A program made the translations under genes and the position numbers. The notes under the pieces are model-generated. The model was not told where the DNA came from, did no database searches, and was given only the letters and a program-made list of their open reading frames with translations. From Anaerolineales bacterium UBA2181 (GTDB lineage Bacteria; Chloroflexota; Anaerolineae; Promineifilales; UBA4811), in the NCBI GenBank assembly GCA_002328075.1, contig DCVT01000015.1, positions 75,971-139,970 of the forward strand: a DNA stretch of 64,000 bases. Reading direction: 5' to 3'. Position 1 is the first letter of the stretch. Each line of letters begins with the position of its first letter. Shown here one piece after another: positions 6,534 through 64,000 of the stretch.

Positions 6534-6956
6534 ATGGACGACCCGAGCTTTGAACCCCAGATCGTGACCTTTGCCTGCCACTACTGCGCCTATGCGGCGG
6601 CCGACCTGGCGGGCGGGCTGCGGCTCAAGTACCCGGCCGCTATCAAGATCATCGAATTGCCGTGCAGCGGCAAGCTTGACGTGATGCATGCATTGCGCGC
6701 CTTTGAAGACGGTGCGGATGGGGTACTGGTGGCAGGTTGACTGGAGGGCGATTGTCATTACCGGGACGGTAATATCAACGCCAGAAGACGAGTAGAACAC
6801 GTGCGCAAATTGCTCGACCAGATCGGACTGAGCGGTCGTCGCGTCCAGATGATCAATGTGTCTTCAGCCATGGGCGGGCAGTTTGCCTACCTGGCGGCCG
6901 AGATGACGTCAGAGATCGAAAAACTGGGCCCGAACCCGTTGCGAGGCGCAAAATGA
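6534..6956 (+). CDS. mvhD: MvhD-like protein with in-frame UGA (putative selenocysteine) at 6738..6740
   Basis: ATG 6534 is preceded by GAGGA. The N-terminal half (FACHYCAY..LPCSGK..GADGVLVAG) stops at TGA 6738. The same frame continues as LEGDCHYRDGN..GPNPLRGAK to TGA 6954-6956. The TGA aligns with the Cys of VACPIGTCHH in the paralog at 1301..1780. Confidence 0.75.
6756..6774 (+). promoter_or_regulatory. Putative bacterial SECIS hairpin
   Basis: ATTACCG-GGA-CGGTAAT forms a 6-7 bp stem with a G-rich apical loop, starting about 16 nt after UGA 6738. The identical core is found after the second in-frame UGA at 13700. Confidence 0.55.
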
Positions 6957-39988: not shown

Positions 39989-40170
39989 AAGACGCCGAGT
40001 AACGTATTGGTGATGGAAGGCGGCCATCGCGTGCAGCTGGCGATTGCACTCATGCTGCGGCGCTGGGACTGCCGAGCGGTGACAGCGCGGGACGGTATGC
40101 ACGGTCTGGTAGATTGCTGCCAGAGCGGGTGGAGCCGGTGCTGACGGACGTCATGATGGTGATGCTGACC
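39989..40170 (+). pseudogene. Frameshifted receiver (REC)-domain relic running into the start of the next gene
   Basis: Frame A reads KTPSNVLVMEGGHRVQLAIALMLRRWDCRAVTARDGMHGLVD and then stops at 40142-44. Frame +1 continues as LLPERVEPVLTDVMMV. Together these give the beta1-alpha1-beta2-alpha2-beta3 pattern of a response-regulator N-terminus up to the phospho-acceptor Asp. The usual acidic DD pair is replaced by EG. Confidence 0.35.
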
Positions 40171-42710: not shown

Positions 42711-45302
42711 TCAGGGAACAAACTGAATGTCGTCCACGTAGGTCCAGGTGTTGTACCAACGGTCAAAAGCGCTCCAATTCTCCAGCCGCAGTGTGATATT
42801 GCGCCCTGCGTACGGAGCTACATTGACATCAAAATACTCCCACCCCTGCGACTGGGCCGGGTTCGTGCATCCATAGACGACCGTCTGGTTGCCGTCCATC
42901 TTGACTACACTTCCGTTGACGACAATCTGGAAGCGGTCATAGTTCTCGTCCACGAATTTGTCCTGACTGAAGATCCGGTACCAGACGCGCAGCTTGGTAT
43001 AACCGCTGGCCGGCACGCTGATGGTGCGCTGGGCCCAGGCAGAACCGAGGGGAACACCATCGTTGCAGGGGTAGGCCGGGTTGCCGAGCAATGCAGCCGA
43101 GGTTCCGGAGTGGCGATCCGCAGTGGTTACGGACTGGGACAGCTCGCCCCCATGCGACCATCCGGCCCAGCCATCCTCAAAGCCGCCGTTGTCCAAGGGA
43201 TAGTACCTCCCTACCACGATCGGTAGGTAGACTTGGCTCTTCTCCACAACGGTCGTGGCTACGGTGCTGGTCCCGCCGATGTTGCCTGCCAAATCGGTTG
43301 CCCTCACGCGGAAGGAGTAATTGTGATCGAACTGCACTGCCACCGGCGTGGATGGCCCAAACTGATCAGACGAGAGGGAGGTGTTAGCATGCCAGGTCTG
43401 CCAGGGGTTGTTATCCACCCTGTACTCGACCTGGTACGTCGCGATTCCTGAGCCGGGCGCAGGGTCAGCGCCTGACCACGTGACGGTCCACGAGCGCTGC
43501 CAGACCTTGACCGGCGAGCTGACGCTCGCCGAGGGCGCGACCGTGTCGCGGACCGTATTTCCGTCACCGCTGCTCGAGGCGGCCGCCTCCGAGTTGCCGG
43601 CGTTGTCCGTGGCTACGGTTTGAAAGTAGTAGGTTCCATCGCCACTCGTTGGGCTGAAACTAAAGGTGCCGCTGGTTCCGGTTGAGCACTGCCCGCTGGC
43701 GGTCCAGGTGCCACCGGAGCCGAACTTGTACCAGAGGCAGGTCTGGTTGGGGCCGGAGGCAGCGTCGCTGACCGTCCAGGCCACCGGAATCGGGCCCCCG
43801 TTGTCGTAGGCGGGCGGATTGGCCTGGGACGCCGGGGGCAAGGTGTCACGAACCGTGTTGTCGTCACCGCCGCCGGCAGCGGCGGCCTCCGAGTTGCCGG
43901 CGTTGTCGGTGGCGACGGTCTGAAAATAGTAGGTTCCGTCGCCCCCGGTCGGGTTAAATTCCCAGGTGCCGCTGGTTCCGCTTGAGCACTGCCCGCTGGC
44001 GGTCCACGTGCCACCAGAGCCGAATTTGTACCAGAGGCAGGTCTGGTTGGGGCCGGAGGTGGAGTCGCTGGTGGTCCAACCGACGGGGATCGTTTCGCCG
44101 TTGTCGTAGGTGGGCGAACTGGCGGTGGATGACGGGGGCACGGTATCGCGAATCGTGTTTGTGTCACCGCTGCCAGAGGCGGCCGCCTCCGAGTTTCCGG
44201 CGACATCGGTGGCAACGGTCTGAAAGTAGTAGGTGCCGTCGCCACTGGTTGGATCAAAGTTAAAGGTGCCACTGGTTCCAGCTGAACACAACCCGCTGGC
44301 CGTCCAGGTGCCGCCGGAACCGAACTTGTACCAGAGGCAGGTCTGGTTGGGGCCGGAGGTGGCGTCGCTGGCGACCCATATCACCGGAATGGTCCCACCC
44401 GTGTCGTAGGTGGGCGAATTGGCCGAGGACGCCGGGGGGACTGAATCCCGCAATGTCTGCCCATCACCGCTGCCGGAGGCAGCCGCCTCCGAGTTGCCGG
44501 CGTTATCGGTGGCCACCGTCTGAAAGTAGTAGGTTCCATCGTCACTGGTTGGTGGGTTGAAATTGAAGGTGCCGCTGGTACCACCTGAACACAGCCCGCT
44601 GGCGGTCCAGGTGCCGCCGGAACCGAACTTGTACCACAAGCAGGTCTGGCCAGGGCCGGAGGTAGCGTCGCTGGCGGTCCAACCCACCGGAATCAGCCCG
44701 CCGGTGTCGTATGCTGGCGGGCTGGCCGACGACGTCGGCGCTACCGTGTCATACATCGTGTTGGTGTCGCCGTTCCCAGCAGGGCCATCCTCCACGTTAT
44801 TGGCGTTGTCGGTGGCAACGGTCTGAAAATAGTAGGTCCCGTCTCCGTTAGCGGCGACAAAGTAAAAGGTGGCGGATTCCGCCGTGTTGGTATAGCTGGT
44901 GGTGATCCAGTCGCCCGTGCCGAACTTGAAATGCAGGCGCACCAACTTGATCCCGCTGCCGGCATGGCCGTCAGACGCTGTATAGCTCACCGGAATGGTG
45001 GCTACCAGAGAATAGTTGGGTGAGACTGCGGTGGAGGTGGGGGGTTGATTGTCGGCGAGAGGAGTCCTGGGGGTCAACGCGTTGGCTGCGGGGTTGTTTG
45101 GTGCAACCACGGGCAGTGTAACAACCTGACGCGTCAGGTCTCCGGCAGCCTGGGCTGCGGCGGCTACCGCCGTCAGCAAGAGCAGTAGAGTTACCAGGAC
45201 GGCTACTACTATCACCGAGGTGCGCCTGATTAGCTGCGCTCGACATCGTGTCGATTGATCAGTCTGGTTCCTCATCGCATTTTCTCCTCGAATCGTCTGC
45301 AT
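42711..45302 (-). CDS. Secreted/anchored protein with five ~100-aa Ig-like tandem repeats and C-terminal CBM-like jelly-roll
   Basis: It has an N-terminal TM/signal segment (VIVVAVLVTLLLLLTAVAAAAQA). The repeat unit is GPNQTCLWYKFGSGGTWTASG.CS.GTSGTF.F.P..GDGTYYFQTVATDNAGNSEAAA. A further ATDLAGN Ig-like domain follows. The C-terminus reads NGGFEDGW...YVDDIQFVP. Confidence 0.6.
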   Translation of the reverse strand: MQTIRGENAMRNQTDQSTRCRAQLIRRTSVIVVAVLVTLLLLLTAVAAAAQAAGDLTRQVVTLPVVAPNNPAANALTPRTPLADNQPPTSTAVSPNYSLVATIPVSYTASDGHAGSGIKLVRLHFKFGTGDWITTSYTNTAESATFYFVAANGDGTYYFQTVATDNANNVEDGPAGNGDTNTMYDTVAPTSSASPPAYDTGGLIPVGWTASDATSGPGQTCLWYKFGSGGTWTASGLCSGGTSGTFNFNPPTSDDGTYYFQTVATDNAGNSEAAASGSGDGQTLRDSVPPASSANSPTYDTGGTIPVIWVASDATSGPNQTCLWYKFGSGGTWTASGLCSAGTSGTFNFDPTSGDGTYYFQTVATDVAGNSEAAASGSGDTNTIRDTVPPSSTASSPTYDNGETIPVGWTTSDSTSGPNQTCLWYKFGSGGTWTASGQCSSGTSGTWEFNPTGGDGTYYFQTVATDNAGNSEAAAAGGGDDNTVRDTLPPASQANPPAYDNGGPIPVAWTVSDAASGPNQTCLWYKFGSGGTWTASGQCSTGTSGTFSFSPTSGDGTYYFQTVATDNAGNSEAAASSSGDGNTVRDTVAPSASVSSPVKVWQRSWTVTWSGADPAPGSGIATYQVEYRVDNNPWQTWHANTSLSSDQFGPSTPVAVQFDHNYSFRVRATDLAGNIGGTSTVATTVVEKSQVYLPIVVGRYYPLDNGGFEDGWAGWSHGGELSQSVTTADRHSGTSAALLGNPAYPCNDGVPLGSAWAQRTISVPASGYTKLRVWYRIFSQDKFVDENYDRFQIVVNGSVVKMDGNQTVVYGCTNPAQSQGWEYFDVNVAPYAGRNITLRLENWSAFDRWYNTWTYVDDIQFVP
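43540..45030 (-). repeat. Five tandem ~300-bp coding repeats
   Basis: The anchor GGTCTGAAA(G/A)TAGTAGGT recurs at 43617, 43918, 44218, 44518 and 44819, a period of 300-301 bp. The four central and 3' units are highly similar and the 5'-most unit is divergent. Confidence 0.85.
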
Positions 45303-48045: not shown

Positions 48046-50337
48046 CTAGTCAAAGTCCATTGGCACATAGGGCTGCGTGCTGATCTCGCCTCCGGCATCC
48101 TGGTCATCGATGGGCGGGGGTGGCGGGGGCGCCGTCGGCCGCACAGAACCTGGCGACACCATCGGTTGGGTCGACTCGAGATCAGGTTCAGGCTCAGCCG
48201 GTTCGTATGCCTCGGTGGCAAAGGGATCCACCGGTCGTTCTGCCGGCGCCGGTGTTGGCGTAGGTACACTCCGCGAGCCGGCAATGACGGTGGCCGTAGA
48301 GTCCTCCTGTTTGGTTTTTCCCGGAAAGATGGCCTGCATGGGAATCGTCTGGTCCAGGACCGATCCCTTGCCTTTGGCGGCCGGCATCGAGGATTTCAGC
48401 TTGAACTGCAGCCGGACCCGTCCCAAGTTGATGATGTCATCATGCTGCAGCCACTGTCCGTTGATCCCCACCTGTTCATAATTCACGTACGAGCCGCTGG
48501 TGCTCCCTTCGTCGTACATCATGAAACGCTCTCCCCCCTTGCGGTCCATCTCGTTGCTAATGCGGGCGTGGAGTCGCGAGACCGACCGATCGTTCAGCAC
48601 CACCTGGGCCAACTGCTCGTCTCGACCGAGCCGTATGTTTTCACCAACCAGTTCGATGGGCGGTCTGGTCGGATCGTCCCCTTCCAGGACGACCAGATAT
48701 GCCTTGACATCCTGTGTCGCCCGGGCTTTGTCCCGATCCACGAAAAACGGCTCGGTGATCTCTTTGACCTTGTTTACTACCGAGCTAATTACCTTGGGAG
48801 GGCGGCGTACCAGGATGACCACCAAGACAAGCGCCAGCAGCGACACAACCAGGGCCCCTAGCGACCATACCTCTGGGTTGCAGCGCACAATTCCCGTGAT
48901 ACCACTGTATTGGTCTTCACACGCTACCACCACCACGGGCGTGGGGGTGGGCATGGGGGTGGGGGTCGGGGTGGGAACCGGGGTCGGTGTGATGACGGTG
49001 ATGCTCAACCGGAGTTCGTCGCTCTCCGATTGCATTCCCTGAACGTCCCGTACCCGGACACGGATCGAATGGGACCCGGCCTGCAGCGAGGTCAGGTTCC
49101 AGATAATCTGGCTGCAGGGTGGGACGCAGCTTTCGCTAGCCACCACTCCGTCCACCAGGAGATCCACCTTGTCCACCTGCCGTGGATAGCCGTCGGGCCA
49201 ATTCACCTCGAAATCAACCACCTGCGTTCGCGGTTCTATGTCCTGGACCGGCATCCTGGGATCATCGGTCCGACGGGTGATTTGGGTGCCCGGTGTCGGC
49301 TGGAGGATGATCACCTGCGGTGGCCTGACGTTGATGCTGAAACCAACCCGCGCCGACTTGCCCCCGGTTTCGAGGAGCAACTCGTGGCTGCCGGCGGAAT
49401 AGAGCTTGGAAGTGTAAGTGAGTTGGTACTGCTCGCGCTGGCTGGTGAGCCTTGCGTACAGCGGTTCCAGCGAAACGCCTATCAGCTCGTCGAGGGGGGT
49501 GGGTTTGCGGCCCTCGGACGCCAACCGGTAGTGGTCTCCGTACGTGTCCAGCGACAGCCGTTTCATGTTGGACTCTGCCTGACCGCCCCAATTGTTGGCA
49601 GGACCAAAGATGATCGTATAGATCGGCACGTTCTGCGTGTTGGCAGTCCGGACAATGTCGGCTACCTCGCGGTCGCTGATCACGTCGATGCCGTCCGAGA
49701 TGACGATCACAGCCTGGAAGAGTGTGGACCGGGCCGCCTGCAGCTGGGCCAGTGCCCGCGAGACCAGGTCGTTCAGCGGCGTAGCACTGATACCCTGAGG
49801 TATCTCGTATAAATAGGTGCCGTCGCGCACCGTATTCCTGAACGGCGTAAAGGCGGCCGTATCCTCAGGAAGCGGAGCCACCTTCTGAATCTCGGTGCTG
49901 GAAAGTGGCGCCAAAACGGCGACCTGATCCATACCTTCGGCCATGTAGGATTCGGCAAAGGTGTAGACAACCTGTTTGGCTTCCTCCAACCGTGTATAGC
50001 CCGTGGCTCCGTTCTGGCGAGTGTCAAGACTGGCGTCCAAGACGAACACCAGTTGGACGCCCACCTGCACATCGTCCACGGTGACCGGTAGGGCATCGCC
50101 ATCCTCGCTCAACGCGAAATCCGCGGCGGTGAGCCCTGGCACGCGGCCGCGAGCGTCATCCGACACAATGGCGCGGACCGCAACGGTTGGGAAGGCAGAG
50201 TAATCCACCTTGCCTTGAGGCACGGCCACTTCAAAGACCTGCCCCTGAGCGCCCAACCATGTGGCGGGCGCTGCTCCAAGCAACAGGGCGATAACAAGCA
50301 CAATGCGCCAGGAAGTGATCACCGATTGTCTGTTCAT
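48046..50337 (-). CDS. Signal peptide - VWA - Ig-like - TM - FHA protein
   Basis: The N-terminal signal is followed by a VWA-like core (VFVLDASLDT ... VIVISDGID). The TM is VWSLGALVVSLLALVLVVILV. The C-terminal FHA reads IRLGRD..VSRLHARIS..GSTSGSYVN. Confidence 0.7.
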   Translation of the reverse strand: MNRQSVITSWRIVLVIALLLGAAPATWLGAQGQVFEVAVPQGKVDYSAFPTVAVRAIVSDDARGRVPGLTAADFALSEDGDALPVTVDDVQVGVQLVFVLDASLDTRQNGATGYTRLEEAKQVVYTFAESYMAEGMDQVAVLAPLSSTEIQKVAPLPEDTAAFTPFRNTVRDGTYLYEIPQGISATPLNDLVSRALAQLQAARSTLFQAVIVISDGIDVISDREVADIVRTANTQNVPIYTIIFGPANNWGGQAESNMKRLSLDTYGDHYRLASEGRKPTPLDELIGVSLEPLYARLTSQREQYQLTYTSKLYSAGSHELLLETGGKSARVGFSINVRPPQVIILQPTPGTQITRRTDDPRMPVQDIEPRTQVVDFEVNWPDGYPRQVDKVDLLVDGVVASESCVPPCSQIIWNLTSLQAGSHSIRVRVRDVQGMQSESDELRLSITVITPTPVPTPTPTPMPTPTPVVVVACEDQYSGITGIVRCNPEVWSLGALVVSLLALVLVVILVRRPPKVISSVVNKVKEITEPFFVDRDKARATQDVKAYLVVLEGDDPTRPPIELVGENIRLGRDEQLAQVVLNDRSVSRLHARISNEMDRKGGERFMMYDEGSTSGSYVNYEQVGINGQWLQHDDIINLGRVRLQFKLKSSMPAAKGKGSVLDQTIPMQAIFPGKTKQEDSTATVIAGSRSVPTPTPAPAERPVDPFATEAYEPAEPEPDLESTQPMVSPGSVRPTAPPPPPPIDDQDAGGEISTQPYVPMDFD

Positions 50338-50348
50338 GCGTTTGCCCT

Positions 50349-51347
50349 CTATTGGTTCACTTTCGTATCATATGATACAGCCATCTGACCCAGATAACCC
50401 CAGGCCTTTTCGAATACGGGCCAGGCAAAATGGCGCGCCTGGCCGTACCACGGGTCGTGGACGTAGACTCCCTGCTCGTCGTAGCCAAAGACCGTGAAGG
50501 TGTGTTCACCCCGAACGGCGTTCACCCAGGTTCGGCCATCATCGGTGTACCAGCCGGTCAGCTCAACCGGTTCCATGTCAAACGGTGCCCAGACAATGAC
50601 CGGATGATCTGCCTGAATCTGTCGCCGTAACCATGCTGCGCCTTGTCCATTGAATGCCCGAACGTGGAGCCCCAGTCTTTGGAGGCCGGCCGCCACAGGC
50701 TGGGCGTACACACCGTACCCCCGGGGATAGAGCTGGCGCGGCGGGTCGTCAAAACTCGTACCGACAAAACCGACATTGGGGTTGCCATTGGGGTCGTGAC
50801 CGACGGCCAGGAACACCGTTTGCCAGGACAGGTTGAGCCCGTAGAACTGGGCAAGGTCAGCGGCCGACGTGAACTCGCAGTTAAGGTTTCGCTCCTGTTT
50901 GCTGAAAGGCACGCCGATGATCTGGTGCACACCGGCCGTTCGCGCAATTGGGGTGGGCGTTTTCAGGTCCTCGAGTGTGGATTGGTTGCTCGAGCCCGGT
51001 GCGGCACTCGTGGCCGGCGACGGCAGATCCGTGGGCGCAACCGCCGGCGGCAACGCGACCGATTCAGGTTCGGGCAGTAAAGGCACAACGAGGTTGGTTG
51101 ATGACCCCGATTGGTTGTCTGACCCGGTACGGTGGACCACCGTTCCAGCATTTCGTGCAAGACTGCCTTCCCTGGAGATCCATCGCTCACCCAGGTAAGC
51201 AAAGAGCAAAAGACAGGCGGCTATCAGAGCGGCCAGCAGCAGTCTATATGTCAGGTTGAGCATATCTGGCTGCCGGACGGCGGATAACAGCGGGGGCAGC
51301 CTTGCCGGGCGTGGTGACGAGCCCGAATTGCCGGCCACCTGCCTCAC
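50349..51347 (-). CDS. Membrane-anchored papain-fold C39-like peptidase domain protein
   Basis: An N-terminal TM is followed by QERNLNCEFTSAADLAQFYG (Cys) and GEHTFTVFGYD (His) contexts. The GTG start at 51347 overlaps the upstream stop as GTGA, and ATG 51263 is an alternative. Confidence 0.5.
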   Translation of the reverse strand: MRQVAGNSGSSPRPARLPPLLSAVRQPDMLNLTYRLLLAALIAACLLLFAYLGERWISREGSLARNAGTVVHRTGSDNQSGSSTNLVVPLLPEPESVALPPAVAPTDLPSPATSAAPGSSNQSTLEDLKTPTPIARTAGVHQIIGVPFSKQERNLNCEFTSAADLAQFYGLNLSWQTVFLAVGHDPNGNPNVGFVGTSFDDPPRQLYPRGYGVYAQPVAAGLQRLGLHVRAFNGQGAAWLRRQIQADHPVIVWAPFDMEPVELTGWYTDDGRTWVNAVRGEHTFTVFGYDEQGVYVHDPWYGQARHFAWPVFEKAWGYLGQMAVSYDTKVNQ

Positions 51348-52300
51348 GGTGCCACCTCTAGGCGGGCGTCATCCCAGTACGTATCCTGGTTCCGGCGCGG
51401 TTGATTGGGAGAGGACCAGGCGAAAACGGTCACATAGTCGCTCTCAGAAGTGGCTTCCACGCTAAAGGCCGACCAGCCAGAGGTGGGACTTTGGCGAGCT
51501 GACCACACGATGGAGTCAGCCTTGGGGTTACTTCCGCCCAACGGGTCGATTCCGATACGCATGCCCATATCGGCCGGGTTACACGACTGGTCACTCGGGC
51601 AATCGCCAGAACCGTCGTGTGACCAGGCCTGGCCGTAGATGGTGAACCGTAACTTGACCCCCGGGGCCACCTGTACTCGCTGCATGACGCCGGCGGTGTA
51701 GGTGCCAAAGGTCTTGAAATACTGCTGGGCGCGCTCGCCGCTGTGCACCCGGCTCAGATGGGGCGCCTCGGCCGGCTTGAACTCGGGGGCAAAGTCCGCG
51801 TCCGACCACTGGACATACCATGGAATCCAGCCTTCGGGCACATTGAACTCGGTTCGGCCGGCATAGGGCCCGTATTGGCCTTCGAAACCTGGGTTGGTGA
51901 GCAGATTGACGCCGACTGGAACCACCGAGCCGGGCTTTTGCGTTGCAGCCGGCGGGCCGGTCGGCGAGGGCGATGGCGGACTGGTTGGAATCACTGCCCG
52001 ACGGGTGGGAGTGATCTTGGGGGTGGGTACCGCAGTGGGCGTGGGCGGTCTGGTGGGCAGCGTGGTGGCGGTTGGAAGCGGTGGTGGTGTCTCTGAAGGC
52101 AATGCCGCCGTCACCAGTGGCTCGGCTGTCGGCGGATCGCCCGACACCAGGCAGCCGACACTAGAGATCACCAGGAGCGCGCACAACCCGAGCCACGAGC
52201 GTACGTGCCCACGAGTGCGGCGGGTCCTGTCCAGTGTTCCTGGTACCGATCGATCAGCGATCCTACGCGTCGGACACGACATGCGCCAAGCTCCGCTCAT
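51344..52300 (-). CDS. Secreted protein with PT-rich linker and CBM4/9-like domain
   Basis: It has a TM/signal segment (LGLCALLVISSVGCLV), a PT-rich region and NLLTNPGFEGQY...VHSGERAQQYF, typical of carbohydrate-binding jelly-rolls. Confidence 0.4.
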   Translation of the reverse strand: MSGAWRMSCPTRRIADRSVPGTLDRTRRTRGHVRSWLGLCALLVISSVGCLVSGDPPTAEPLVTAALPSETPPPLPTATTLPTRPPTPTAVPTPKITPTRRAVIPTSPPSPSPTGPPAATQKPGSVVPVGVNLLTNPGFEGQYGPYAGRTEFNVPEGWIPWYVQWSDADFAPEFKPAEAPHLSRVHSGERAQQYFKTFGTYTAGVMQRVQVAPGVKLRFTIYGQAWSHDGSGDCPSDQSCNPADMGMRIGIDPLGGSNPKADSIVWSARQSPTSGWSAFSVEATSESDYVTVFAWSSPNQPRRNQDTYWDDARLEVAP

Positions 52301-55806: not shown

Positions 55807-58281
55807 TCACTGACCGAATGTGAACCGCTGAAAGCTAGCCGGTTGCTCCCAGTTCTGGGACCAGTCCACGGCGGCAGCCAGTATCACATACTCATTGGGC
55901 TGCAAACCCCACTCGTCACCCTTTTGATCGGTTTCATTGCTGCTGCACCGCACCATATCGCTTTCGGTGAGTCGAAGCGACAGGTCTCCGTACACGTTCC
56001 AGGTCTGTCCGCAGTCCAGGCTGTAATGGATCTCGCGAACTCCTTGTCGGCTTTCGTCCTGGCCCTGCAACTCCACGGTGACGGTCCCGATGTATACGCC
56101 GGTCGTCTGTACGCCGAACAGACGGATGGTCGTCTTGGGTGGGATGATGTCTTCAATCGGCCGGCCTGTGACGGTGTATTTGCCGGGCAGGTTCAGGAAC
56201 ACTTCGACGTATGGCCGGCCGCTCTGGTCAGCCAAAACGCGCGATTCGGGCACCACGACCCAGTTTCCTAACCCCGTGGCCGAATCGATCTCGTATCGGT
56301 GCACCTTGATCGATGCCAAATCCACCTTGCTGACATTCGCCCGGGTCAACCACACGGGAACCCGAGTGGGATTGGCGGGATCGGCAGTGGTAAAGATAAA
56401 GGTGGCCAGGCTGACAAGGCCCTGGAACGGAGTCGGGTCCAACTGGCGGCGGCTCTGGACCTGAGTGCACCCACCTCCTTCTTCAGCCGGGTCCCACGTG
56501 TGTATCCACAGGTATTCACTGCCGCCGCACCCTATTGCGTCCATGGGATCAACCTGCATCTCGAGGCTGGGGCTAAAACCGTAGGGGTCGATGGCTTCGG
56601 CCAATTCGAACCGCCCGTTGTTGTTGCAGTCACGCCGGACCTCGAAATGGAGGTGGTGCCCTGTGCTATTCCCGGTGTTTCCCATGGTGCCGATGCGTTC
56701 TCCCTGCTGGATCCTGGTTCCGGGTGCCAGGGCGAGCATCCGGTCAAAGTGGGCATCCGGCTCCAGGTGTAGATAGCTGGTCTGGTATTTGCCGCGGTCG
56801 ACGCGGTCGTGGGTGAGCAGCACATAGTTGTTGCCCAGACTGTCAGTTCCGGCCCCGGCAAAAACGGCGTCGGCCACCGCCAAGAGGGCTGTCTCGATGG
56901 GCGTGTTGACCCTTTGCCAACCATAGACGGAAAAGTCATACCCTGGATGACCGCTGTAGAAATCGCCGCTCTGGCCCGGGTTGGACGTCCGATCCAGGCT
57001 GATGGAGCCGTCAAAGAGGACCATGGTGTCGCGGGCCTGAAGCGAGTCGATGACGTCAGCCTCGCCGCGGTAGAGGGGGAACTGGTGGTCAAAAAAGCTG
57101 TTGATGCGCCCGCCAGCTGCCGTCCTTTGGGATGCAGCGCGGAACTGCTCGGCCGTGCCGAATCCCTGGTTCTTGCCGTCGTAAGGAAAGGGCAACTCCA
57201 TCCAACCGCCCGACTGCGGGGTGCAACCGGGCAGCGGCGCGTAGGTAGGGGTGGGTGAGGGCAGCATGACGCCAGTGCTGGTAGAGACAGTCGGGCGCGG
57301 GGTCTGAGTGGCCACGTCAACGGCAGTCGGAGGAACCGGAGTCATGGTGGCCTCCACGGGTTCGGTGGGCGAGATCTGCAGCTCGGCCACCGGCGTCGGC
57401 GTGGGCCGCAAGAATACCTGATACAGGCCGGCGCTGATGCCCACCAATAAACAAAGACCTCCAAATACCATGGAGACCGGCAGCCACGGAAGGTGGCGCA
57501 GCCATTCGAGCCAGACCGCGCCGCCCGGCACCGAAGTTTTCTCGCCGGTCTCTGCCGTGACGACCTGGTCGCCCAAAGGCGCTGGTGCTGCCTCTGCCCA
57601 CTGGATCAGCGCGAACGGCCCCAGCTGAAGGTGGGTACCTTCCGGCCAAACCTGTGCCGTGTTGGCCGGCAGCGCCTCGTTGCCTATTCGGGTTGTATCG
57701 CGCTGGCTCAGGTCGGTTACCCACAACTGGTTTCCCTTCTGGTGTACGCGACACTGCTGGAGCGACACACCAGGATCGTCCAGCACCATATCGCATTTCG
57801 AATCCCGGCCTATCAGGATCGGTTGGTCACCTACCTTCACCGTCGAGGGCCGCCCGTGACCACAGGCAATCCTCCATGTGCGACTGGCGGTGAGAGGATG
57901 ACGTTCCACAACCTCCGGCTTGGCGGCAGAAGCGGCCACCGGTGGCTCAGGGCGGCGCTGCCGCGAAGCGGATTCCTCCAACTGGAGGGAAAACGGGCCA
58001 ATTCGCAGCTCCTGGTCTGGCATCCACCGGGCGCGCTGTCCCGGCTCCAACCGGTTGGAACCTAGGTAGGTGCCGTTGTGGCTTCCCAAGTCGGTCACCG
58101 TCACACGGCCGTCCGCGGTTTCCATCTGGCAGTGGCGTCGAGAGACCTTGGGGTCGTCAAGCTGAAGGTCGCACGACGGGTCGCGCCCAATTACCTGGAC
58201 ACTGACCTCCAGATTCACCCTGCGTTCGGGTTGGTCGTTATGGCGGACCTTGAGAGCTACTTGACGTGAGGACGCATCCAT
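55807..58281 (-). CDS. FHA - FHA(degenerate) - TM - M23 peptidase - Ig-like protein
   Basis: FHA1 reads VIGRD..VSRRHCQM..GSHNGTY. FHA2 reads LIGRD..VSLQQCRV..SQRDTT. The TM is WLPVSMVFGGLCLLVGISAGL. The M23 motifs are HPGYDF, TGNSTGHHLHFEV. Confidence 0.75.
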   Translation of the reverse strand: MDASSRQVALKVRHNDQPERRVNLEVSVQVIGRDPSCDLQLDDPKVSRRHCQMETADGRVTVTDLGSHNGTYLGSNRLEPGQRARWMPDQELRIGPFSLQLEESASRQRRPEPPVAASAAKPEVVERHPLTASRTWRIACGHGRPSTVKVGDQPILIGRDSKCDMVLDDPGVSLQQCRVHQKGNQLWVTDLSQRDTTRIGNEALPANTAQVWPEGTHLQLGPFALIQWAEAAPAPLGDQVVTAETGEKTSVPGGAVWLEWLRHLPWLPVSMVFGGLCLLVGISAGLYQVFLRPTPTPVAELQISPTEPVEATMTPVPPTAVDVATQTPRPTVSTSTGVMLPSPTPTYAPLPGCTPQSGGWMELPFPYDGKNQGFGTAEQFRAASQRTAAGGRINSFFDHQFPLYRGEADVIDSLQARDTMVLFDGSISLDRTSNPGQSGDFYSGHPGYDFSVYGWQRVNTPIETALLAVADAVFAGAGTDSLGNNYVLLTHDRVDRGKYQTSYLHLEPDAHFDRMLALAPGTRIQQGERIGTMGNTGNSTGHHLHFEVRRDCNNNGRFELAEAIDPYGFSPSLEMQVDPMDAIGCGGSEYLWIHTWDPAEEGGGCTQVQSRRQLDPTPFQGLVSLATFIFTTADPANPTRVPVWLTRANVSKVDLASIKVHRYEIDSATGLGNWVVVPESRVLADQSGRPYVEVFLNLPGKYTVTGRPIEDIIPPKTTIRLFGVQTTGVYIGTVTVELQGQDESRQGVREIHYSLDCGQTWNVYGDLSLRLTESDMVRCSSNETDQKGDEWGLQPNEYVILAAAVDWSQNWEQPASFQRFTFGQ

Positions 58282-58363
58282 TGTATTGTTCTACTATCAT
58301 CTAGTTCGCGCGTCATATCTTTATCAGTTCCACTTTTGCGGAACTATGGGAGACGAGGTGATC

Positions 58364-60295
58364 ATGAAGCGCATCTGCACACACTATTATATTCCCTTTT
58401 TGCTTCTCGCGCTGCTATTAGCCCCAGTTTCGGCCGGTGCTCAGGATTCACCGTCGCGAATCCAGATCTCGTGGTTGGATACCAGTCATTTTCCGCAGAT
58501 CGAAGTCCATCTGATCGCTTCCAAACCCACGGGTGGCCGATTCCAGGGTTTGTTTGTCAACTCGCTTCAGGTCACCGAAAACGGAACTGCACGCGATCCA
58601 TCCATGTACGATGCTCCTCGGGGCACCGCGATTACCTTTCTCATTGACGCGGATCAGAAGGCCCAAGCAGAATGGGACCAGATTCGGCAGGGAATCGAGA
58701 GTTACGTCTCGGCTACCGAGAGCTGGATGGATGAGGATTTGGATGTGACCACCCTTATTGTGGCTAACGGCGGCGATTGGCGCGTCCTTGTGCAGGACAC
58801 ACCTTTTCGGAACGATGTGCTGAATGCCTTCATCACTGACACCGGTGCGTATTATCAGCCAACTTTCCATCCCGTTACTCCGCTCTATGACCTGGCATAC
58901 CAGGCGCTACAGGGGATGCCTGCCAAGACCCCGACTCCGGGCATGTACCGGGCGCTCGTGCTGCTGTCCAGCGGGGATCCCGGCGCCAGCACGTCCAGCC
59001 CGGAAGCGGTGGTGTCACTGGCCAAGGAGATGGGCGTTCCGCTGTTCGCGGTGCTTGTCGGCGACAGTGCGGCTGGCGAGACCATCATGCAGCAGTTGGC
59101 CAGCAACAGCGGAGGTCAGTTCCTGCGACTTGATCCGTCCCAAACCCTGGTTCCGCTCTGGCAAGCGCTGAGCAGCCATCACGAGCAGTATGTGATCAGC
59201 TATCGCTCGGGAATCGTGTCCTCCGGAGCGCACAATGTCAAGGTTCTGGTGAGCGAAGGAGTCCAGGACACTCAGGCATTCGACATTACCATTCTCAACC
59301 CGGGTGTGGAGATCACGTTGCCCGAAGCCAACGCCACCATCCTGCGCAAACCGACTGAGTCCAGCGCCGACGTGAGCGGCTTTGAACCAAGTATCCAGGC
59401 GGTAAAATACCTGTGGACCTGGCCGGATGGTTTCGAGCGCAAGGTAAACCAGGTTCAGCTGCGCGTCAATGGCGCTGTCCAACTACAACTCGACCTCACC
59501 GCGACCGATGACCGTAGCCTGACGTGGGACATTTCGACGCTCCCATCGGGTCGGTATTCTATCCGGGTAGAGGTGACCGACGAACTGGGTCTCACCGGTG
59601 TGAGTGCCGAGATACCGGTGACGATACAACTGCAAACATCGGAACCTACGGTGGCACCAGAGCCGACCGCCCAACCTACTCCCGGGCCAAGCTTCGTGGA
59701 CAATGCCCTCAAGACTGCCAAGAAGAACCTGCCCTGGATTGGTGCCGGTGGTCTGTCCCTGTCGGCTCTCTTGGTCACCTTTTTCATGTTCAAGCGGCGG
59801 CTGGCCTTCGCGGGAAAGACCCCAGTGGGTTTCCTTAGGAGCCTGCCCTTTCTCAGGCCGCTGGACCGCGCACTCCGGACGATCGAGCGGGTAACGGGAC
59901 CCATTGGCGTACCCAAACCCAAGAAACCTGATGTCAAGGCACCCGCACGCGCCAAATCGAGCGGTGCGGCGGTTGAGAAAACGCCAGCGGCACCGGCCGC
60001 GCGCGTGGAAGTGACGCAAGGGCCCTCGCTGCCGGGTCCGGTGGAGATCATCGAGGAGACCAGCTTCGGACGTTCGGCCGAGCAAGCCGGAGTGGCGCTG
60101 GTGGACGCGACGGTCTCCCGGCGTCATGCGAGCATCCTTCCCGAATTCGGCGGCAAATACCGGATTTACAATCATAGTCCTCAGCAGACCTGGGTTAACG
60201 AACAACGAGTTCCGGAACACGGGCTGTTGCTGGAGGACGGCGACGAAATCCGGATGGGCAAGGTCAAGATGAAGTTTGTTCATCGGCGAAGGTAG
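58364..60295 (+). CDS. Signal peptide - VWA-like - Ig-like - TM - FHA protein (paralogous architecture to 48046..50337)
   Basis: The signal is MKRICTHYYIPFLLLALLLAPVSAGA. The VWA-like core has a degenerate MIDAS (ITFLIDADQK ... LVLLSSGD). The TM is GAGGLSLSALLVTFFMF. The C-terminal FHA reads SFGRS..VSRRHASI. A GAGGTG RBS precedes ATG 58364. Confidence 0.65.
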   Translation: MKRICTHYYIPFLLLALLLAPVSAGAQDSPSRIQISWLDTSHFPQIEVHLIASKPTGGRFQGLFVNSLQVTENGTARDPSMYDAPRGTAITFLIDADQKAQAEWDQIRQGIESYVSATESWMDEDLDVTTLIVANGGDWRVLVQDTPFRNDVLNAFITDTGAYYQPTFHPVTPLYDLAYQALQGMPAKTPTPGMYRALVLLSSGDPGASTSSPEAVVSLAKEMGVPLFAVLVGDSAAGETIMQQLASNSGGQFLRLDPSQTLVPLWQALSSHHEQYVISYRSGIVSSGAHNVKVLVSEGVQDTQAFDITILNPGVEITLPEANATILRKPTESSADVSGFEPSIQAVKYLWTWPDGFERKVNQVQLRVNGAVQLQLDLTATDDRSLTWDISTLPSGRYSIRVEVTDELGLTGVSAEIPVTIQLQTSEPTVAPEPTAQPTPGPSFVDNALKTAKKNLPWIGAGGLSLSALLVTFFMFKRRLAFAGKTPVGFLRSLPFLRPLDRALRTIERVTGPIGVPKPKKPDVKAPARAKSSGAAVEKTPAAPAARVEVTQGPSLPGPVEIIEETSFGRSAEQAGVALVDATVSRRHASILPEFGGKYRIYNHSPQQTWVNEQRVPEHGLLLEDGDEIRMGKVKMKFVHRRR

Positions 60296-60324
60296 CCAAC
60301 CAAAGCCGGCGGCCCCCGAGCTAC

Positions 60325-61941
60325 CTATTCGCTCAACGAGATGATGTAGGGCCCGATTCTGATGTCAGTGCCCGCAGCCCATGGCTCCAATTGCTGGGCT
60401 TCCAGGCGTCGGTCCTCCATTACCGTGCCATTGGTGGTGCCCAGATCTTTGACTTTGACCTGTTTACCGTCCCAAAAGATGGCGCAGTGTCGTTTGGAGA
60501 CCCCCGGATCGGCGATGACCATGTCGCAATCGGGCAGCCGGCCGATGTAGACCGGTTTTGCACCGAGGGCGACGACGGACGGCTTTCCGTCATCACAGCG
60601 GATGGTCGGAACCTGGAGATCTGGCTCCGGTTCAGGAGGCGGAGCGGTCGGCGATGGTTGGGCAGGCATTTGCCCCCAGTACAGCGTAAACAATCCCAAA
60701 CGCAAGGGGACACCCTTGGGCCAGGTCGTTGGGACGTCGGGCCCCAATTCCTCCTCGGCCAGGAAGGTCTTGTTGGTGCTGTGCAGGTCCCGCACTTTCA
60801 TCTCAGAGTTTATCCGCCGAATCTCGCAGTGGCGTTTGGAGATTTGGCGGTCTTCTGAATCAAGCAACAGGTCGGCCGGCGGCAGACGACCGGCGACGAC
60901 CACATCGCTTTTCATGGCAAAGTGGTCGACCGGCCGATCCTGATAAAAAACCTGAATCAGGACTGATGCCTGCTCGGATGACCATCCCTCCGCTTCTGAA
61001 GGGGTCACCACGGCGCCGGCTTGCACCTGGAAACCCTCCCCGGTCGGCACCGGGGTAAGGGTTGGTGACAGTTTGGCCAATTGGTCGGCAACAGCGCCAG
61101 CAGATGGTGGCCGTTGGGTTCGATCCTTGGCCAACATGGCCAGAACAAGTCTGTCGATGCTGGCAGGAAGGCCAGCCAGGTGAGAGCTGGGCGGCGGCGG
61201 CGATTGGCTCCCATGGTAGTAGACGGCTTGAGCCAACGTAGATACCGGAAAAGGACGTTGGCCGGTGAGTACCTCGTACAGCATGACACCCAGCGAATAG
61301 ATGTCCGAGGACTCGTTGAGCGACTCACCACGGCACTGCTCCGGCGACATGTAGTGCGGGGTACCGATCCTTTGCGTCGTGTGCACCGAGACGCCGGGAG
61401 CCACGCGCAGACGCGCCAGGCCGAAATCGCTGATCACAGGATGATAAGGGCATCCGAATTCGCCGGTCCCAGGGGTCGTGCCGGTTTCCAGGAGAATGTT
61501 GTCTGGTTTGAGGTCCAGATGAAGCACTCCCTGTGAATGTGCATAGTCCAGCGCCCGGCATACCTGTTCCATGATGGCCACCCCGATGGATGTTGGTAGG
61601 CCAAACGGCGAATCACGCAATAGGGTGCGCATGGTGGGCCCGGTGACCAGGTCCATCATCAAGAAGGTAACGCCGGTAGCGTCGTGGCGACCAAAATTGC
61701 GGACGCGCACGATATTGGGATGCTTCAGCCGGGCTACTGTCTGTGCTTCGCGTTTGAACTGCGCGTAGAAACCCTCCCGCTCCGCCAGCTCTGGACGCAT
61801 CACCTTGACGGCCACGGTCAACTCGAGATCCGGATGCTGGGCCCGGTAGACCATGCCCATGCCACCCTCTCCCAGCTTTTCCTGGATGACGTAGTTGAGA
61901 AAGTTGGCGCCGATCAGCGCGTCCCTGTTGGAAGGGGGCAT
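60325..61941 (-). CDS. Cytoplasmic non-RD Ser/Thr kinase with two C-terminal FHA domains
   Basis: GEGGMGMV, VAVKVM, HLDLKPDN (Leu in place of the RD Arg), DFGLA and SPEQ. FHA1 reads VAGRL..ISKRHCEI..HSTNKTF. FHA2 reads YIGRL..VSKRHCAI..GTTNGTV. It starts 10 nt after the stop of the FHA::gpI gene. Confidence 0.8.
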   Translation of the reverse strand: MPPSNRDALIGANFLNYVIQEKLGEGGMGMVYRAQHPDLELTVAVKVMRPELAEREGFYAQFKREAQTVARLKHPNIVRVRNFGRHDATGVTFLMMDLVTGPTMRTLLRDSPFGLPTSIGVAIMEQVCRALDYAHSQGVLHLDLKPDNILLETGTTPGTGEFGCPYHPVISDFGLARLRVAPGVSVHTTQRIGTPHYMSPEQCRGESLNESSDIYSLGVMLYEVLTGQRPFPVSTLAQAVYYHGSQSPPPPSSHLAGLPASIDRLVLAMLAKDRTQRPPSAGAVADQLAKLSPTLTPVPTGEGFQVQAGAVVTPSEAEGWSSEQASVLIQVFYQDRPVDHFAMKSDVVVAGRLPPADLLLDSEDRQISKRHCEIRRINSEMKVRDLHSTNKTFLAEEELGPDVPTTWPKGVPLRLGLFTLYWGQMPAQPSPTAPPPEPEPDLQVPTIRCDDGKPSVVALGAKPVYIGRLPDCDMVIADPGVSKRHCAIFWDGKQVKVKDLGTTNGTVMEDRRLEAQQLEPWAAGTDIRIGPYIISLSE

Positions 61942-61951
61942 ACAAGAGCTT

Positions 61952-63121
61952 TCAGGCTGTGGGTGGTTTATCTTTGTCTGCTGGTGGCTGGTCGGCCGTC
62001 GGATCCACGGGTTGGCTGGACACGTCTGGAGGCGGCGCAGCTACCTCGGCAGCCGCGTCCGGCGCGGGTTTATCACCTGCAGCTGGAGCGGTTCCCTTTT
62101 CTGGTTTGGGTTTCTTGGGTTTGGCGGCGGGTGGGGGGACCGGCGGCGGCTCTGGCGGTTCCGCGTGCTCGATCACCAATTCATAGGCTGTCTGCGCTGG
62201 CTTTTCGTTCTGGATGATCTGGTGCACCAGCTCTTCGTCTACCTGTTGTTCTGATGGAACCCGGAGGGTGACACGGAAGGTGTGTGGACGCTCCAACACG
62301 TCTTCGATCACCGGTGTCACGGCGGCGTATATCTCCAAATAGCGGCTCAAACCATGACGGGTGCCTCGCCAGCGATAGAGCTCACTGGCACTGCGAATCA
62401 GGTCCCTCCGATGTGCCTCTGGCCAGTTTTCGTTCAAGGTAAGGTCCAGCCAGGCGGCAAACCAGGGCAGTGTGTCGGCCGGTTGCGTGCGGGGATCCAA
62501 TATCAGAGGAAGGTGGTCAGCAATTTGCTCGATCGGCGCCAGGATGGACTCGAAGATGAGTAGGAAGCGATCCATCAGGCTGTCCTGAGAGAAGAACGAG
62601 GGCAAATGCTGCAGGTAACTACTGCGCGGGGGCAGACTCCAGCCGGTTACCGCACCCTCCGCAACGGGTCGAACCGGCTCAGCAAAGGTGAGGACGAACT
62701 CGTCATCCTCCGCAGGTGCCACGGGCTGGGGACCATAGTACACCAGGAGGTACTCCCCAATCCGGATGGTATCGCCCTCAATCAGCTGCCGCGGTTCGTT
62801 TGGCGCCAGTCTCTCATCGTTCAGGAAGGTGCCATTCTGGCTCCTCAAGTCCTCTATCCAGCAGCCCTCCAACCTACACAAGAGCCGACAGTGCCTCCGC
62901 GAGATGCCCTGGTCGGGAAGGACCAGCTCGTTGCCCATCTCCCGTCCAAACCGGAACTCCTCGCGGTTGAGCCGTACGGTCCGGACTGCCTGCCCAGTCT
63001 TTCGTCGCAGGGCCAGAGAACCAAAATCCTGCGGGAAGGCTGGCAAAGAACTCTCCCCCGACGCTGGGGATGCCATCCACCCTTCCTGACCAACAGGTGC
63101 CCTGGGATTGTGATCGCTCAT
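61952..63121 (-). CDS. FHA domain fused to phage P2 gpI / Afp12-like baseplate wedge protein, with Pro/Ala/Lys-rich C-terminal tail
   Basis: The N-terminal FHA reads FRFGRE..ISRRHCRL..LRSQNGTF. The central part is gpI-like (DPRTQPADTLPWFAAWLDLTLNENWPEAHRRDLIRSASELYRWRGTRHGLSRYLE). It overlaps the baseplate J gene as ATGA at 63118-63121. Confidence 0.7.
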   Translation of the reverse strand: MSDHNPRAPVGQEGWMASPASGESSLPAFPQDFGSLALRRKTGQAVRTVRLNREEFRFGREMGNELVLPDQGISRRHCRLLCRLEGCWIEDLRSQNGTFLNDERLAPNEPRQLIEGDTIRIGEYLLVYYGPQPVAPAEDDEFVLTFAEPVRPVAEGAVTGWSLPPRSSYLQHLPSFFSQDSLMDRFLLIFESILAPIEQIADHLPLILDPRTQPADTLPWFAAWLDLTLNENWPEAHRRDLIRSASELYRWRGTRHGLSRYLEIYAAVTPVIEDVLERPHTFRVTLRVPSEQQVDEELVHQIIQNEKPAQTAYELVIEHAEPPEPPPVPPPAAKPKKPKPEKGTAPAAGDKPAPDAAAEVAAPPPDVSSQPVDPTADQPPADKDKPPTA

Positions 63122-64000
63122 GTTACCGTCACCTGGTGTCCGTACGAGACCAGCAAGCTATTGGCCGGAAGCGTGATGCGCTCGGTCCGTTGCTTTCTCG
63201 CTTTTTCCTTGCCGCTCCGTATTACCTCAAACACATCCAGCGCTTCGACATAAGCCACCCCGCCCACCTGCTGGACACACGAATAAACGTCCGAGAGATA
63301 AAGGTCGCGGCCGAACGGCCATCCCTCATTATCTTCACCCCCGGAAAATGGGTTTAGATACGCATACAGGCGGTCGGTCACCAGCTTTTCCACCCGCTTG
63401 GGCGCCAGATGCGGCTGCGCCTTGACCTTGGTTTCGATTGACACGACGACGTACTCCGGTTCGCGGATCTCAAGCCGGACGGTGAGAAGACGTCGCGAGT
63501 CGAGATAGTCCAAGATCTGCTGTTTGAGGGGTTGAGGCAGCTTTAGGTCGTCGGGATTCACCTCCTGGCCCAATGCCTCTACCCGCGGGACCACCAACAG
63601 ATAGACTGTTCCCGGGCTGGGGTCGCCCTCACGGCCGGCGGGCTGGATACACCTTACCCGGGCCACCTCGCGGGCGGCCTCCTTGGCCAGGAACTCGTAA
63701 TCGTCGGCCGTAACCGCCCGGCTGCGTGCCCGGATGATACTCGGGGCGCGCACCTTGGCCAGATCAATGCTTTCGGCGTCGGTGCCACCCAGCGCAGGAA
63801 ATCTGTTCTGCACCCGCGCGATGTAGGGAATGGAGGTCTTGAGCACCCGCAGTTTGCCCGACTGCACGTTTCCGATCACGCCGCCGCCGTAGCGGTATCC
63901 GGCGAACCGGACTTGCTTTCCCCGCGGCGGAATCGCCCCATACACGCGCATGTCGCCATCGGGCTGCCGGAGACTGGGACCAAAGCGAATCTCACCGGTC
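63118..64000 (-). CDS. Baseplate J (gpJ/gp6/Afp11)-like protein; 5' part lies beyond the window end
   Basis: Motifs typical of the baseplate J C-terminal half are present (YRYGGGVIGNV, RAVTADDYEFLAKEA). The reading frame stays open upstream of the first Met (..TGEIRFGPSLRQPDGD-MRVYG) to nt 64000. Confidence 0.7.
   Translation of the reverse strand, partial: TGEIRFGPSLRQPDGDMRVYGAIPPRGKQVRFAGYRYGGGVIGNVQSGKLRVLKTSIPYIARVQNRFPALGGTDAESIDLAKVRAPSIIRARSRAVTADDYEFLAKEAAREVARVRCIQPAGREGDPSPGTVYLLVVPRVEALGQEVNPDDLKLPQPLKQQILDYLDSRRLLTVRLEIREPEYVVVSIETKVKAQPHLAPKRVEKLVTDRLYAYLNPFSGGEDNEGWPFGRDLYLSDVYSCVQQVGGVAYVEALDVFEVIRSGKEKARKQRTERITLPANSLLVSYGHQVTVT

Follow-up and report, generated by a model that had tools for sequence, protein, structure and literature searches.

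In a 64,000-nucleotide stretch of DNA, the window throughout this text, from the Chloroflexota member Anaerolineales bacterium UBA2181 (GenBank assembly GCA_002328075.1, contig DCVT01000015.1, positions 75,971 to 139,970 of the forward strand), we identified a gene, here called FHA::Cis12, whose product carries a forkhead-associated (FHA) domain at the N-terminus of a baseplate wedge protein of a contractile injection system (CIS). The FHA domain keeps the full set of phosphothreonine (pThr) binding residues, the gene is followed by a Hanks-type kinase gene and a large module of further kinase, FHA and phosphatase genes, and the same fusion recurs in Chloroflexota and Deinococcota, where a kinase gene is usually found beside it. 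We think it somewhat probable that the FHA domains couple the baseplate to this signalling module, through conditional membrane docking or triggering, a reading in which we include generic phospho-coupling.

Both halves of the protein were recognised in a single reading frame, as the original prediction had read from sequence motifs. All parts of the predicted FHA signature GR...SRRH...NGT could be located (G59-R60, S74-R75-R76-H77 and N96-G97-T98), and the Pfam FHA model aligns to residues 57-122 over its positions 2-67 of 67 (E=6.8e-19; 68.5 bits, cutoff 20.7). The motif of P2 gpI and TIGR02242-type tail proteins, LPWFAAWLDL...YRWRGTRHGL, occupies residues 218-258 within matches to Pfam Tail_P2_I (residues 190-308, E=7e-18; 65.3 bits, cutoff 20.6) and to TIGR02242 of NCBIfam (residues 171-275, E=3.7e-23; 82 bits, cutoff 51.85), and the tail_P2_I model TIGR01634 is matched as well (44.6 bits against 30.05). 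Because the 715-position equivalog model CIS12_fam is matched in part only (92 bits against a cutoff of 860), FHA::Cis12 is not the CIS12_fam equivalog. These family models identify FHA::Cis12 as a CIS wedge subunit of the Cis12 type, and we infer that its FHA domain is probably a working pThr reader.

Structure prediction, proposed as a check in the original prediction, bears out the two-domain architecture. In an AlphaFold2 model built from a 20-sequence alignment, amino acids (aa) 33-130 form an FHA beta-sandwich with a predicted local distance difference test score (pLDDT) of 94-98, and aa 166-320 form a helical/beta wedge domain (pLDDT 70-96). A Foldseek search against the PDB returned many solved FHA domains (probability 1.00, E ~1e-8), among them 3poa (TM-target 0.84, root-mean-square deviation 2.0), and, at rank 3, chain 9gtp_A of the Streptomyces coelicolor CIS baseplate. 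With phmmer, aa 162-314 of FHA::Cis12 align to the 190-aa chain 9gtp_E (E=5.6e-13 to 7e-14), which is present as six copies in that baseplate (PDB 9GTP). Since only ~15 residues precede the shared wedge domain in the Streptomyces protein versus 161 in the window protein, the FHA domain is an N-terminal addition to an otherwise minimal Cis12. If the baseplate is built as in this solved relative, it would, by homology, carry six N-terminal FHA copies on flexible tethers of ~35 residues.

Within the linker that AlphaFold2 leaves disordered lies one element kept in the six closest homologues, EFVLTFAE (window 62678-62701, minus strand, aa 141-148), whose T145 is a speculative candidate for a phospho-acceptor or an FHA ligand. 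The proline-, alanine- and lysine-rich tail of 69 residues is shared by the window protein with no homologues but the two nearest ones, P0003 and P0004. In the Joint Genome Institute (JGI) annotation the gene begins 25 codons farther on, at a TTG, and its product has 364 aa (P0001); we favour the ATG at 63121 because close homologues share an MS[DE] N-terminus.

The gene belongs to a CIS cluster. The overlap with a baseplate J gene noted in the original prediction is there, plus-strand positions 63118-63121 reading tcat, that is ATGA on the gene strand, and the upstream gene is a Cis11 gene matching TIGR02243 (E=2.1e-68 for the part in the window, E=7.4e-147 for the full protein, L001:7962-9929). 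The genes farther upstream were read on JGI metagenome contig 3300001580 Draft_10000082 (98,119 bp), which includes the window. They are, beyond the window, a gp19-type tube gene and genes for a conserved 145-aa protein, a DUF6760 protein, a 67-aa protein and a second tube protein (TIGR02241) and then, next to Cis11, genes for a 1100-aa protein, a LysM/CIS_tube initiator, VgrG_rel (E=1e-121) and gp25. The core CIS genes on the organism's own contig are two gp19-type tubes, DUF6760, LysM/CIS_tube, VgrG, gp25, Cis11 and Cis12. The 1100-aa protein (L001 1678-4980), whose gene comes after that of the second tube protein and before that of the LysM tube initiator, has no Pfam or NCBIfam match and may be a tape-measure or cargo protein; Roseiflexus castenholzii has a 929-aa eCIS_core protein in its place.

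The source contig stops ~0.9 kb past the first tube gene, short of the region where relatives have the sheath. In eight fusion-bearing relative loci tblastn places a sheath gene directly upstream of the first tube gene, and one relative (L083) has genes for an SLT protein, an AAA+ ATPase, an eCIS_core protein, a Pvc16-type cap, the sheath and four tube proteins. A metagenome scan with the 145-aa protein (A2) also reached upstream regions, but few of its loci extended to Cis12, and the sheath linkage to the fusion comes from the genome loci. Extension past nt 64,000, also proposed at the outset, thus yielded tube, VgrG, gp25 and LysM tube genes from the organism itself, but sheath and AAA+ genes only from relatives.

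Capsid, portal, terminase and lysis genes, which the original prediction had named as the signs of an ordinary prophage tail, are absent from the 21 kb around the gene and from the relatives, and the remainder of the window holds metabolic genes of an ordinary chromosome, such as those for HdrA/GltD-like flavoproteins, MTHFR, NAD synthase and enoyl-ACP reductase. The place after Cis12 is taken by the kinase and not by a fibre-like gene, and membrane-anchored Ig-like and beta-helix proteins are encoded farther away. Among the cluster proteins scanned, Pfam and NCBIfam gave no match to a Tss membrane-complex family, and a promoter and terminator scan of 57900-62100 found nothing above background. 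By its genes the system is a CIS of the Chloroflexota/Deinococcota lineage. This lineage is probably one of cytoplasmic CIS (clade IId, Streptomyces-like) rather than of released, Afp/PVC-type particles; the clade IId placement comes from a published tree covering Roseiflexus, Aggregatilineales and Calidithermus (PMC12998442), taxa that carry the same fusion. The contractile injection system first predicted stands, with its tube, VgrG, gp25 and Cis11 genes, though probably not as a particle of the Afp/PVC type.

We then turned to public genomes for the distribution of the fusion. Two protein searches, with 120 clusters listed in each, gave the FHA plus Tail_P2_I architecture in 74 and 118 of them, respectively, or ~190 distinct clusters (90% identity) among the matches listed. 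Named carriers are Anaerolineales, Ardenticatenales, Thermoflexales, Caldilinea, Roseiflexus castenholzii and Thermogemmatispora tikiterensis in the Chloroflexota and Calidithermus chliarophilus in the Deinococcota. When each species was represented by one genome, a scan gave 349 relatives of Cis12, the best 80 of which were used to compare loci; 45 of the 80 carry the fusion (46 with a frameshifted Roseiflexus copy, L061), and the gene order LysM-tube, VgrG, gp25, Cis11, Cis12 is found wherever the sequence reaches. An Ardenticatenales metagenome-assembled genome (MAG) comes nearest to the window organism, at 65% identity. In a neighbour-joining tree of the 150-aa Cis12 domain, whose resolution is too weak to decide between one origin and several, the fusion appears in several clades.

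Kinase adjacency was scored where the sequence continues for 2.5 kb or more downstream, in 37 loci with the fusion and 27 without. A kinase gene lies within 2.5 kb downstream in 22 of the 37 fusion loci as against one of the 27 unfused loci (Fisher p ~3e-6, the loci being phylogenetically related), and this one, L061, is itself the frameshifted fusion, so that kinases are essentially confined to fusion loci. The kinase match starts less than 100 bp from the end of the Cis12-domain match in 14 fusion loci. Counting a kinase or an FHA gene within the same distance gives 31/37 fusion loci versus 14/27 unfused ones. An FHA alignment of the fusion loci showed the full Gly-Arg/Ser/His/Asn pocket in 35 of 45, and a kinase is present in the flank of 23/35 loci with a canonical pocket compared with 1/9 with a degenerate one (p=0.006), a correlation as expected if canonical domains read the marks of the neighbouring kinase. 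The degenerate pockets have lost Arg60, Ser74 or Asn96 and belong mostly to a Herpetosiphonaceae-type clade. The suggestion that the baseplate is phospho-regulated is strengthened by the kinase linkage and by the pocket correlation, though it is still inferred rather than proven.

Unfused loci have FHA genes of their own. Dehalococcoidia, Tepidiformaceae and other unfused Cis12 loci often have, directly after Cis12, one or two convergent genes for proteins with an N-terminal FHA domain followed by Ig-like domains, and a convergent FHA-Ig gene was counted in 13 unfused loci; FHA may therefore have been associated with Cis12 in trans before the fusion arose, or such an association may take its place.

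In the window, the kinase-FHA-FHA gene that the original prediction had placed 10 nt downstream was found at that distance from the FHA::Cis12 stop. Its product, K1, has all catalytic motifs (VAVK, HLDLK, DFG, SPE) and no predicted transmembrane (TM) segment. It opens a module that extends from 60.3 kb down to ~42.7 kb and totals three kinases, nine FHA domains in six proteins, a PP2C phosphatase, two VWA proteins, an M23 peptidase and a C39 peptidase (table below). By topology prediction FHA::Cis12, K1 and K3 are soluble, and the other FHA proteins have their FHA domains on the cytoplasmic side, beside a TM segment. In K2 the beta3 lysine is replaced by arginine, HRD by HLA and DFG by EVG; with beta3 Lys, HRD Asp and DFG Asp all replaced, K2 is a predicted pseudokinase, by appearance a scaffold of the receptor type and not an enzyme.

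Several parts of the module recur in relatives. The VWA-FHA gene nearest K1 has a counterpart in the same orientation in L002, an M23 gene also follows FHA::Cis12 in Thermoflexales and Anaerolineales loci, and PP2C ends the module in six relatives (L023, L025, L030, L033, L048 and L049). A counterpart of K2 (kinase-FHA-TSP3) is encoded in Candidatus Flexifilum, whose locus has genes for a kinase-FHAx3 protein, the kinase-FHA-TSP3 protein, an FHA membrane protein and PP2C. In loci of this type an eCIS_core (DUF4157) gene, a marker often tied to CIS cargo, stands between FHA::Cis12 and kinase-FHAx3 (L023 10687-11739; also L025 and L033). Just outside the minus-strand module, the plus strand of the window encodes a second M23 peptidase (38213-39433) and an 807-aa right-handed beta-helix protein (40114-42537).

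Table. The FHA::Cis12 gene, its domains and the genes around it (window coordinates), with the unfused loci that carry FHA-Ig genes.
Feature	Position	Strand	Evidence or remark
FHA::Cis12 (gpI-type) baseplate wedge gene, 389 aa	61952..63121	-	Pfam, NCBIfam, AlphaFold2, Foldseek, phmmer
FHA domain, aa 33-130, pocket residues R60, S74, H77, N96	62732..63025	-	Pfam FHA, AlphaFold2, Foldseek
Disordered linker, aa 131-165, with EFVLT145FAE motif	62627..62731	-	pLDDT ~45
Cis12/Tail_P2_I/TIGR02242 wedge domain, aa 166-320	62162..62626	-	TIGR02242, phmmer, Foldseek, pLDDT 70-96
Pro/Ala/Lys-rich disordered C-terminal tail, aa 321-389	61955..62161	-	Composition: P 23, A 14, K 8 of 69 residues
Cis11/baseplate-J gene, 3' part; full gene 655 aa, runs past window end	63118..64000	-	TIGR02243, Pfam Baseplate_J
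K1, soluble Hanks-type Ser/Thr kinase with two FHA domains, 538 aa	60325..61941	-	Pkinase E=2e-46, FHA x2
Membrane protein: signal/TM, VWA, Ig-like, TM, cytoplasmic FHA	58286..60295	+	JGI start = window 58364
FHA-FHA (cytoplasmic), TM, M23 peptidase (outside)	55807..58281	-	Pfam, topology prediction
K2, receptor-like predicted pseudokinase, FHA, TM, extracellular TSP3/Ig, 1147 aa	52351..55794	-	Pfam; TM aa 662-680
318-aa membrane-anchored protein, no family match	51344..52300	-	Pfam/NCBIfam, TM prediction
Membrane-anchored C39-like peptidase	50349..51347	-	Peptidase_C39_2 E=3.6e-20, TM segment
Second signal peptide, VWA, Ig-like, TM, FHA protein	48046..50337	-	Pfam, topology prediction
K3, soluble Ser/Thr kinase, intact catalytic loop	46688..48004	-	Pkinase E=1.3e-41; HRDVK, DFG, SPE
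PP2C phosphatase with C-terminal TM segment	45347..46651	-	PP2C E=1.5e-19; TM aa 288-306
Membrane-anchored Ig-like (Big_13) surface protein	42711..45302	-	Probable outer module edge; membership uncertain
Unfused loci with FHA-Ig genes	L041, L043, L055-L058, L063, L065, L073-L075, L078, L080, L081		

Among known machines, the nearest structural precedent for an FHA fold in a subunit of an injection machine is the inner-ring protein SctD/YscD of the type III secretion system (T3SS), likewise a structural subunit. The cytoplasmic FHA-like domain of SctD is not known to have the canonical residues for pThr binding and is regarded as phospho-independent, unlike the window FHA, which keeps R60, S74, H77 and N96. 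With the wedge proteins of phage P2 (gpI), R2-pyocin and Afp12/Pvc12, FHA::Cis12 shares the Tail_P2_I family, a gene position after gpJ and a wedge role; to our knowledge none of these proteins has an FHA domain, and their particles have tail fibres and act from outside the cell.

The T6SS (type VI secretion system) offers a functional parallel. Its threonine phosphorylation pathway consists of a Hanks kinase (PpkA/TagE), fed by membrane sensors, a PP2C phosphatase (PppA/TagG) and an FHA reader (Fha1/TagH) (PMC13584744). In the window, too, a Hanks kinase, a PP2C and an FHA reader are encoded beside a contractile machine, but here the reader is a baseplate subunit, whereas the T6SS reader is a separate accessory protein. 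The TagH model TIGR03354 matches FHA::Cis12 in the FHA region only (49.4 bits against a cutoff of 120.25), and judged by this match the reader is not a TagH/Fha1 orthologue. Nor, by its family markers, is the machine a T6SS, those present being of the type of extracellular CIS (TIGR02241-02243, VgrG_rel and CIS_tube, with a Pvc16 cap in a relative). The likeness to PpkA-Fha1 is probably a convergent analogy, not a homology of systems.

The closest solved machine is the CIS of S. coelicolor (CIS-Sc; PDB 9GTP; Casu et al., eLife 2025). According to that paper, its wedge consists of two Cis11 and one Cis12, it has no tail fibres, and firing in Streptomyces implicates the membrane protein CisA, a direct interaction with which is unconfirmed (PMC12237407). 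FHA::Cis12 shares with its Cis12 a homologous wedge domain (E ~1e-13 over the whole domain) and a gene position directly after Cis11, and in neither does a tail-fibre gene follow Cis12. The 190-aa Streptomyces protein differs in having neither the 161 residues of FHA domain and linker nor the tail rich in proline, alanine and lysine. The portions covered here of three accounts of the Streptomyces cluster (PMC12237407, PMC10066040, PMC10020575) do not mention a kinase/FHA module.

Two carriers of the fusion are species whose particles have been imaged: Gaisin et al. (ISME J 2026, PMC12998442) saw CIS by cryo-electron tomography inside cells of R. castenholzii and C. chliarophilus. The machine lineage itself is therefore known. 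The same work assigns the Chloroflexota/Deinococcota lineage to clade IId, beside the cytoplasmic CIS of Streptomyces, and reports that R. castenholzii particles form in aerobic but not in anaerobic culture. Lineage, gene order and the sequence of FHA::Cis12 followed by kinase-FHA genes are common to these species and the window organism, which differs as an uncultured member with a larger signalling module. In R. castenholzii DSM 13941 (CP000804), FHA::Cis12 (P0128, 354 aa) comes after Cis11 and is followed by genes for a protein-methyltransferase-like protein, a 1057-aa kinase-FHA protein, a 1034-aa unassigned protein, a 618-aa kinase-FHA protein and an FHA-Calx-beta protein. The methyltransferase-like gene (Methyltransf plus WHD_PKMT; L162 11062-12669) overlaps the end of FHA::Cis12 by 4 nt, ahead of the kinases, and a PAAR gene comes after VgrG. 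In C. chliarophilus only one gene follows FHA::Cis12, for a 1298-aa kinase-FHA protein, before ribosomal protein genes begin; this is a minimal pair of fusion and kinase, at a cluster edge in a different phylum.

The papers found are silent on the FHA connection. FHA and kinase are absent from the main text of PMC12998442, and its supplements have no entry on either that bears on the cluster, 'kinase' there being only phosphoglycerate kinase, an unrelated proteomics entry. A full-text search for FHA or forkhead-associated together with CIS or eCIS returned only T6SS or irrelevant papers, and two Aravind-laboratory papers that name FHA and Chloroflexi do not have CIS as their subject. A baseplate phospho-reader with a dedicated kinase module thus appears to be undescribed, as the original prediction had supposed, but the fusion itself is widespread and already present in public genomes, including those of imaged species, where it has gone unremarked.

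How might such a baseplate be controlled? In the docking or triggering reading that we hold to be somewhat probable, the baseplate FHA would be coupled to the co-encoded module, in which K1 and K3 would write pThr marks, the membrane-anchored PP2C would erase them, and the partners would be the receptor-like pseudokinase with its FHA domain and three membrane proteins combining cytoplasmic FHA with extracellular VWA or M23 domains. An envelope or stress signal would switch on the kinases, which would put pThr marks on a membrane-bound hub or on themselves; the six baseplate FHA domains would bind these marks with avidity, and a free cytoplasmic particle would become docked at the membrane and licensed to fire, until PP2C resets the system. 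FHA docking would in this way fill the role proposed for CisA in Streptomyces. Since the particles of this lineage are intracellular (PMC12998442), a cytoplasmic kinase can reach the baseplate. We favour docking because most partner FHA proteins are membrane-anchored and have sensor-like or peptidoglycan-cutting ectodomains, because particles are free in unstressed cells, and because the sister Streptomyces system needs a membrane protein for firing.

More tentatively, and in our view possible rather than probable, FHA-pThr docking may be the missing trigger of cytoplasmic CIS. A hub sensing envelope damage, in which an active kinase and a receptor pseudokinase would be joined by PP2C and by proteins with VWA and M23 ectodomains and FHA on the cytoplasmic side, would become threonine-phosphorylated and capture particles through the six baseplate FHA domains; the particles would then fire, leading to regulated single-cell death within a filament. 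The hosts would be filamentous Chloroflexota together with Deinococcota, and the logic would have evolved independently of T6SS PpkA-Fha1.

Several observations count against phosphorylation-dependent docking. R. castenholzii particles lie free in the cytoplasm, without membrane anchoring (PMC12998442), so that docking, if it occurs, must be conditional. In crude CIS preparations, mainly contracted sheaths, mass spectrometry listed sheath, tube and Cis11 but no FHA protein (PMC12998442); this absence speaks neither for nor against. Domain calls outside the window were made with hidden Markov models built from the window's own proteins, and the Fisher tests overstate significance because the loci are not phylogenetically independent. 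Twelve loci with a canonical pocket have no kinase in the available sequence (four of them have less than 3 kb downstream), and, conversely, a Deinococcus MAG (L027) has a kinase and yet a degenerate pocket. Finally, in the Herpetosiphonaceae-type loci the gene next to the fusion encodes a protein with three to four tandem FHA domains and there is no kinase; with its degenerate pocket, this subclade implies that the FHA domain has, or can have, a phospho-independent role.

The strongest alternative, though an unlikely one, is a gate on assembly, in which the adjacent kinase would phosphorylate the wedge, for example at linker T145 or on Cis11, and the FHA domain would bind the mark in cis or in trans; the polymerisation of wedges would thereby be locked or unlocked, and particle building would be limited to certain conditions, as in Fha1/TagH-dependent T6SS assembly. 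The soluble K1, encoded 10 nt after FHA::Cis12 and probably in one operon with it, would suit such a gate, as would the conserved threonine-containing motif in an otherwise disordered linker, the production of R. castenholzii particles in aerobic culture only, and the fact that TagH is both binder and substrate of its own kinase (PMC13584744). The linker motif is not, however, kept outside the subclade of the window protein, transcription could account just as well for conditional production, and a gate on assembly would leave the recurrent membrane-anchored FHA, VWA and M23 partners unexplained.

Rather improbable, as an account of the window protein, is a phospho-independent adaptor, in which FHA would serve as a plain interaction or structural module, like T3SS SctD/YscD, that does not read phosphate and links the baseplate to the membrane, to effectors or to multi-FHA proteins, while the kinases regulate something else. 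The clearest case for it is the Herpetosiphonaceae-type subclade (L003-L006, L008, L013, L014 and L053), which retains the fusion with R60S, S74A or the loss of N96 next to its FHAx3-4 partners; a phospho-independent role is likely there, which suggests a phospho-independent offshoot, and the subclade shows that the FHA fold can persist without a phospho-reading function. Dehalococcoidia loci with unfused Cis12 likewise combine convergent FHA-Ig genes with an absence of kinases. The Yop-YscD_cpl model also matches the window FHA (E=5e-13), but the FHA model outscores it, at 68.5 versus 49.5 bits; the full pThr-binding set is present in the window protein and in 35/45 fusion loci, and kinase adjacency is specific to fusion loci and follows pocket integrity. 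Chloroflexota genomes have many Hanks kinases and FHA proteins, and the contig ends before the sheath gene, so that the full cluster is not visible on it; a chance neighbourhood of an ordinary prophage tail gene and an unrelated envelope-signalling island is nevertheless very improbable, for the TIGR02241/02242/02243 trio, VgrG_rel and CIS_tube are all present, the linkage is kept across classes and phyla with housekeeping genes at the boundaries, and capsid, portal, terminase and lysis genes are missing from the 21 kb around the gene and from the relatives.

Elsewhere in the window, two paralogous Fe-S flavoproteins of ~1520 aa (1952-6523 and 8916-13481, plus strand; HdrA/GltD-like, with Pyr_redox_2, Fer4_20 and Fer4) flank genes for a cyclic nucleotide-binding histidine kinase and a double-receiver response regulator (6953-8919), and are followed by MTHFR and an HdrD-like CCG protein. 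The region looks like a gene set of the anaerobic electron-bifurcation type.

Cytoplasmic CIS are a newly recognised mode of action, described in Streptomyces in 2023-2025 and in Chloroflexota/Deinococcota in 2026, and when and where a free cytoplasmic particle fires is an open question, in which, within the covered portions of PMC12237407, only CisA has been implicated, in Streptomyces. A pThr reader built into the wedge with a kinase gene next to it turns this question into a concrete, testable hypothesis in species with imaged particles, R. castenholzii and C. chliarophilus. If true, it might also offer a handle for switchable engineered CIS, and it would add a second case, evolved independently, in which threonine phosphorylation controls a contractile machine, pointing to a general design principle.

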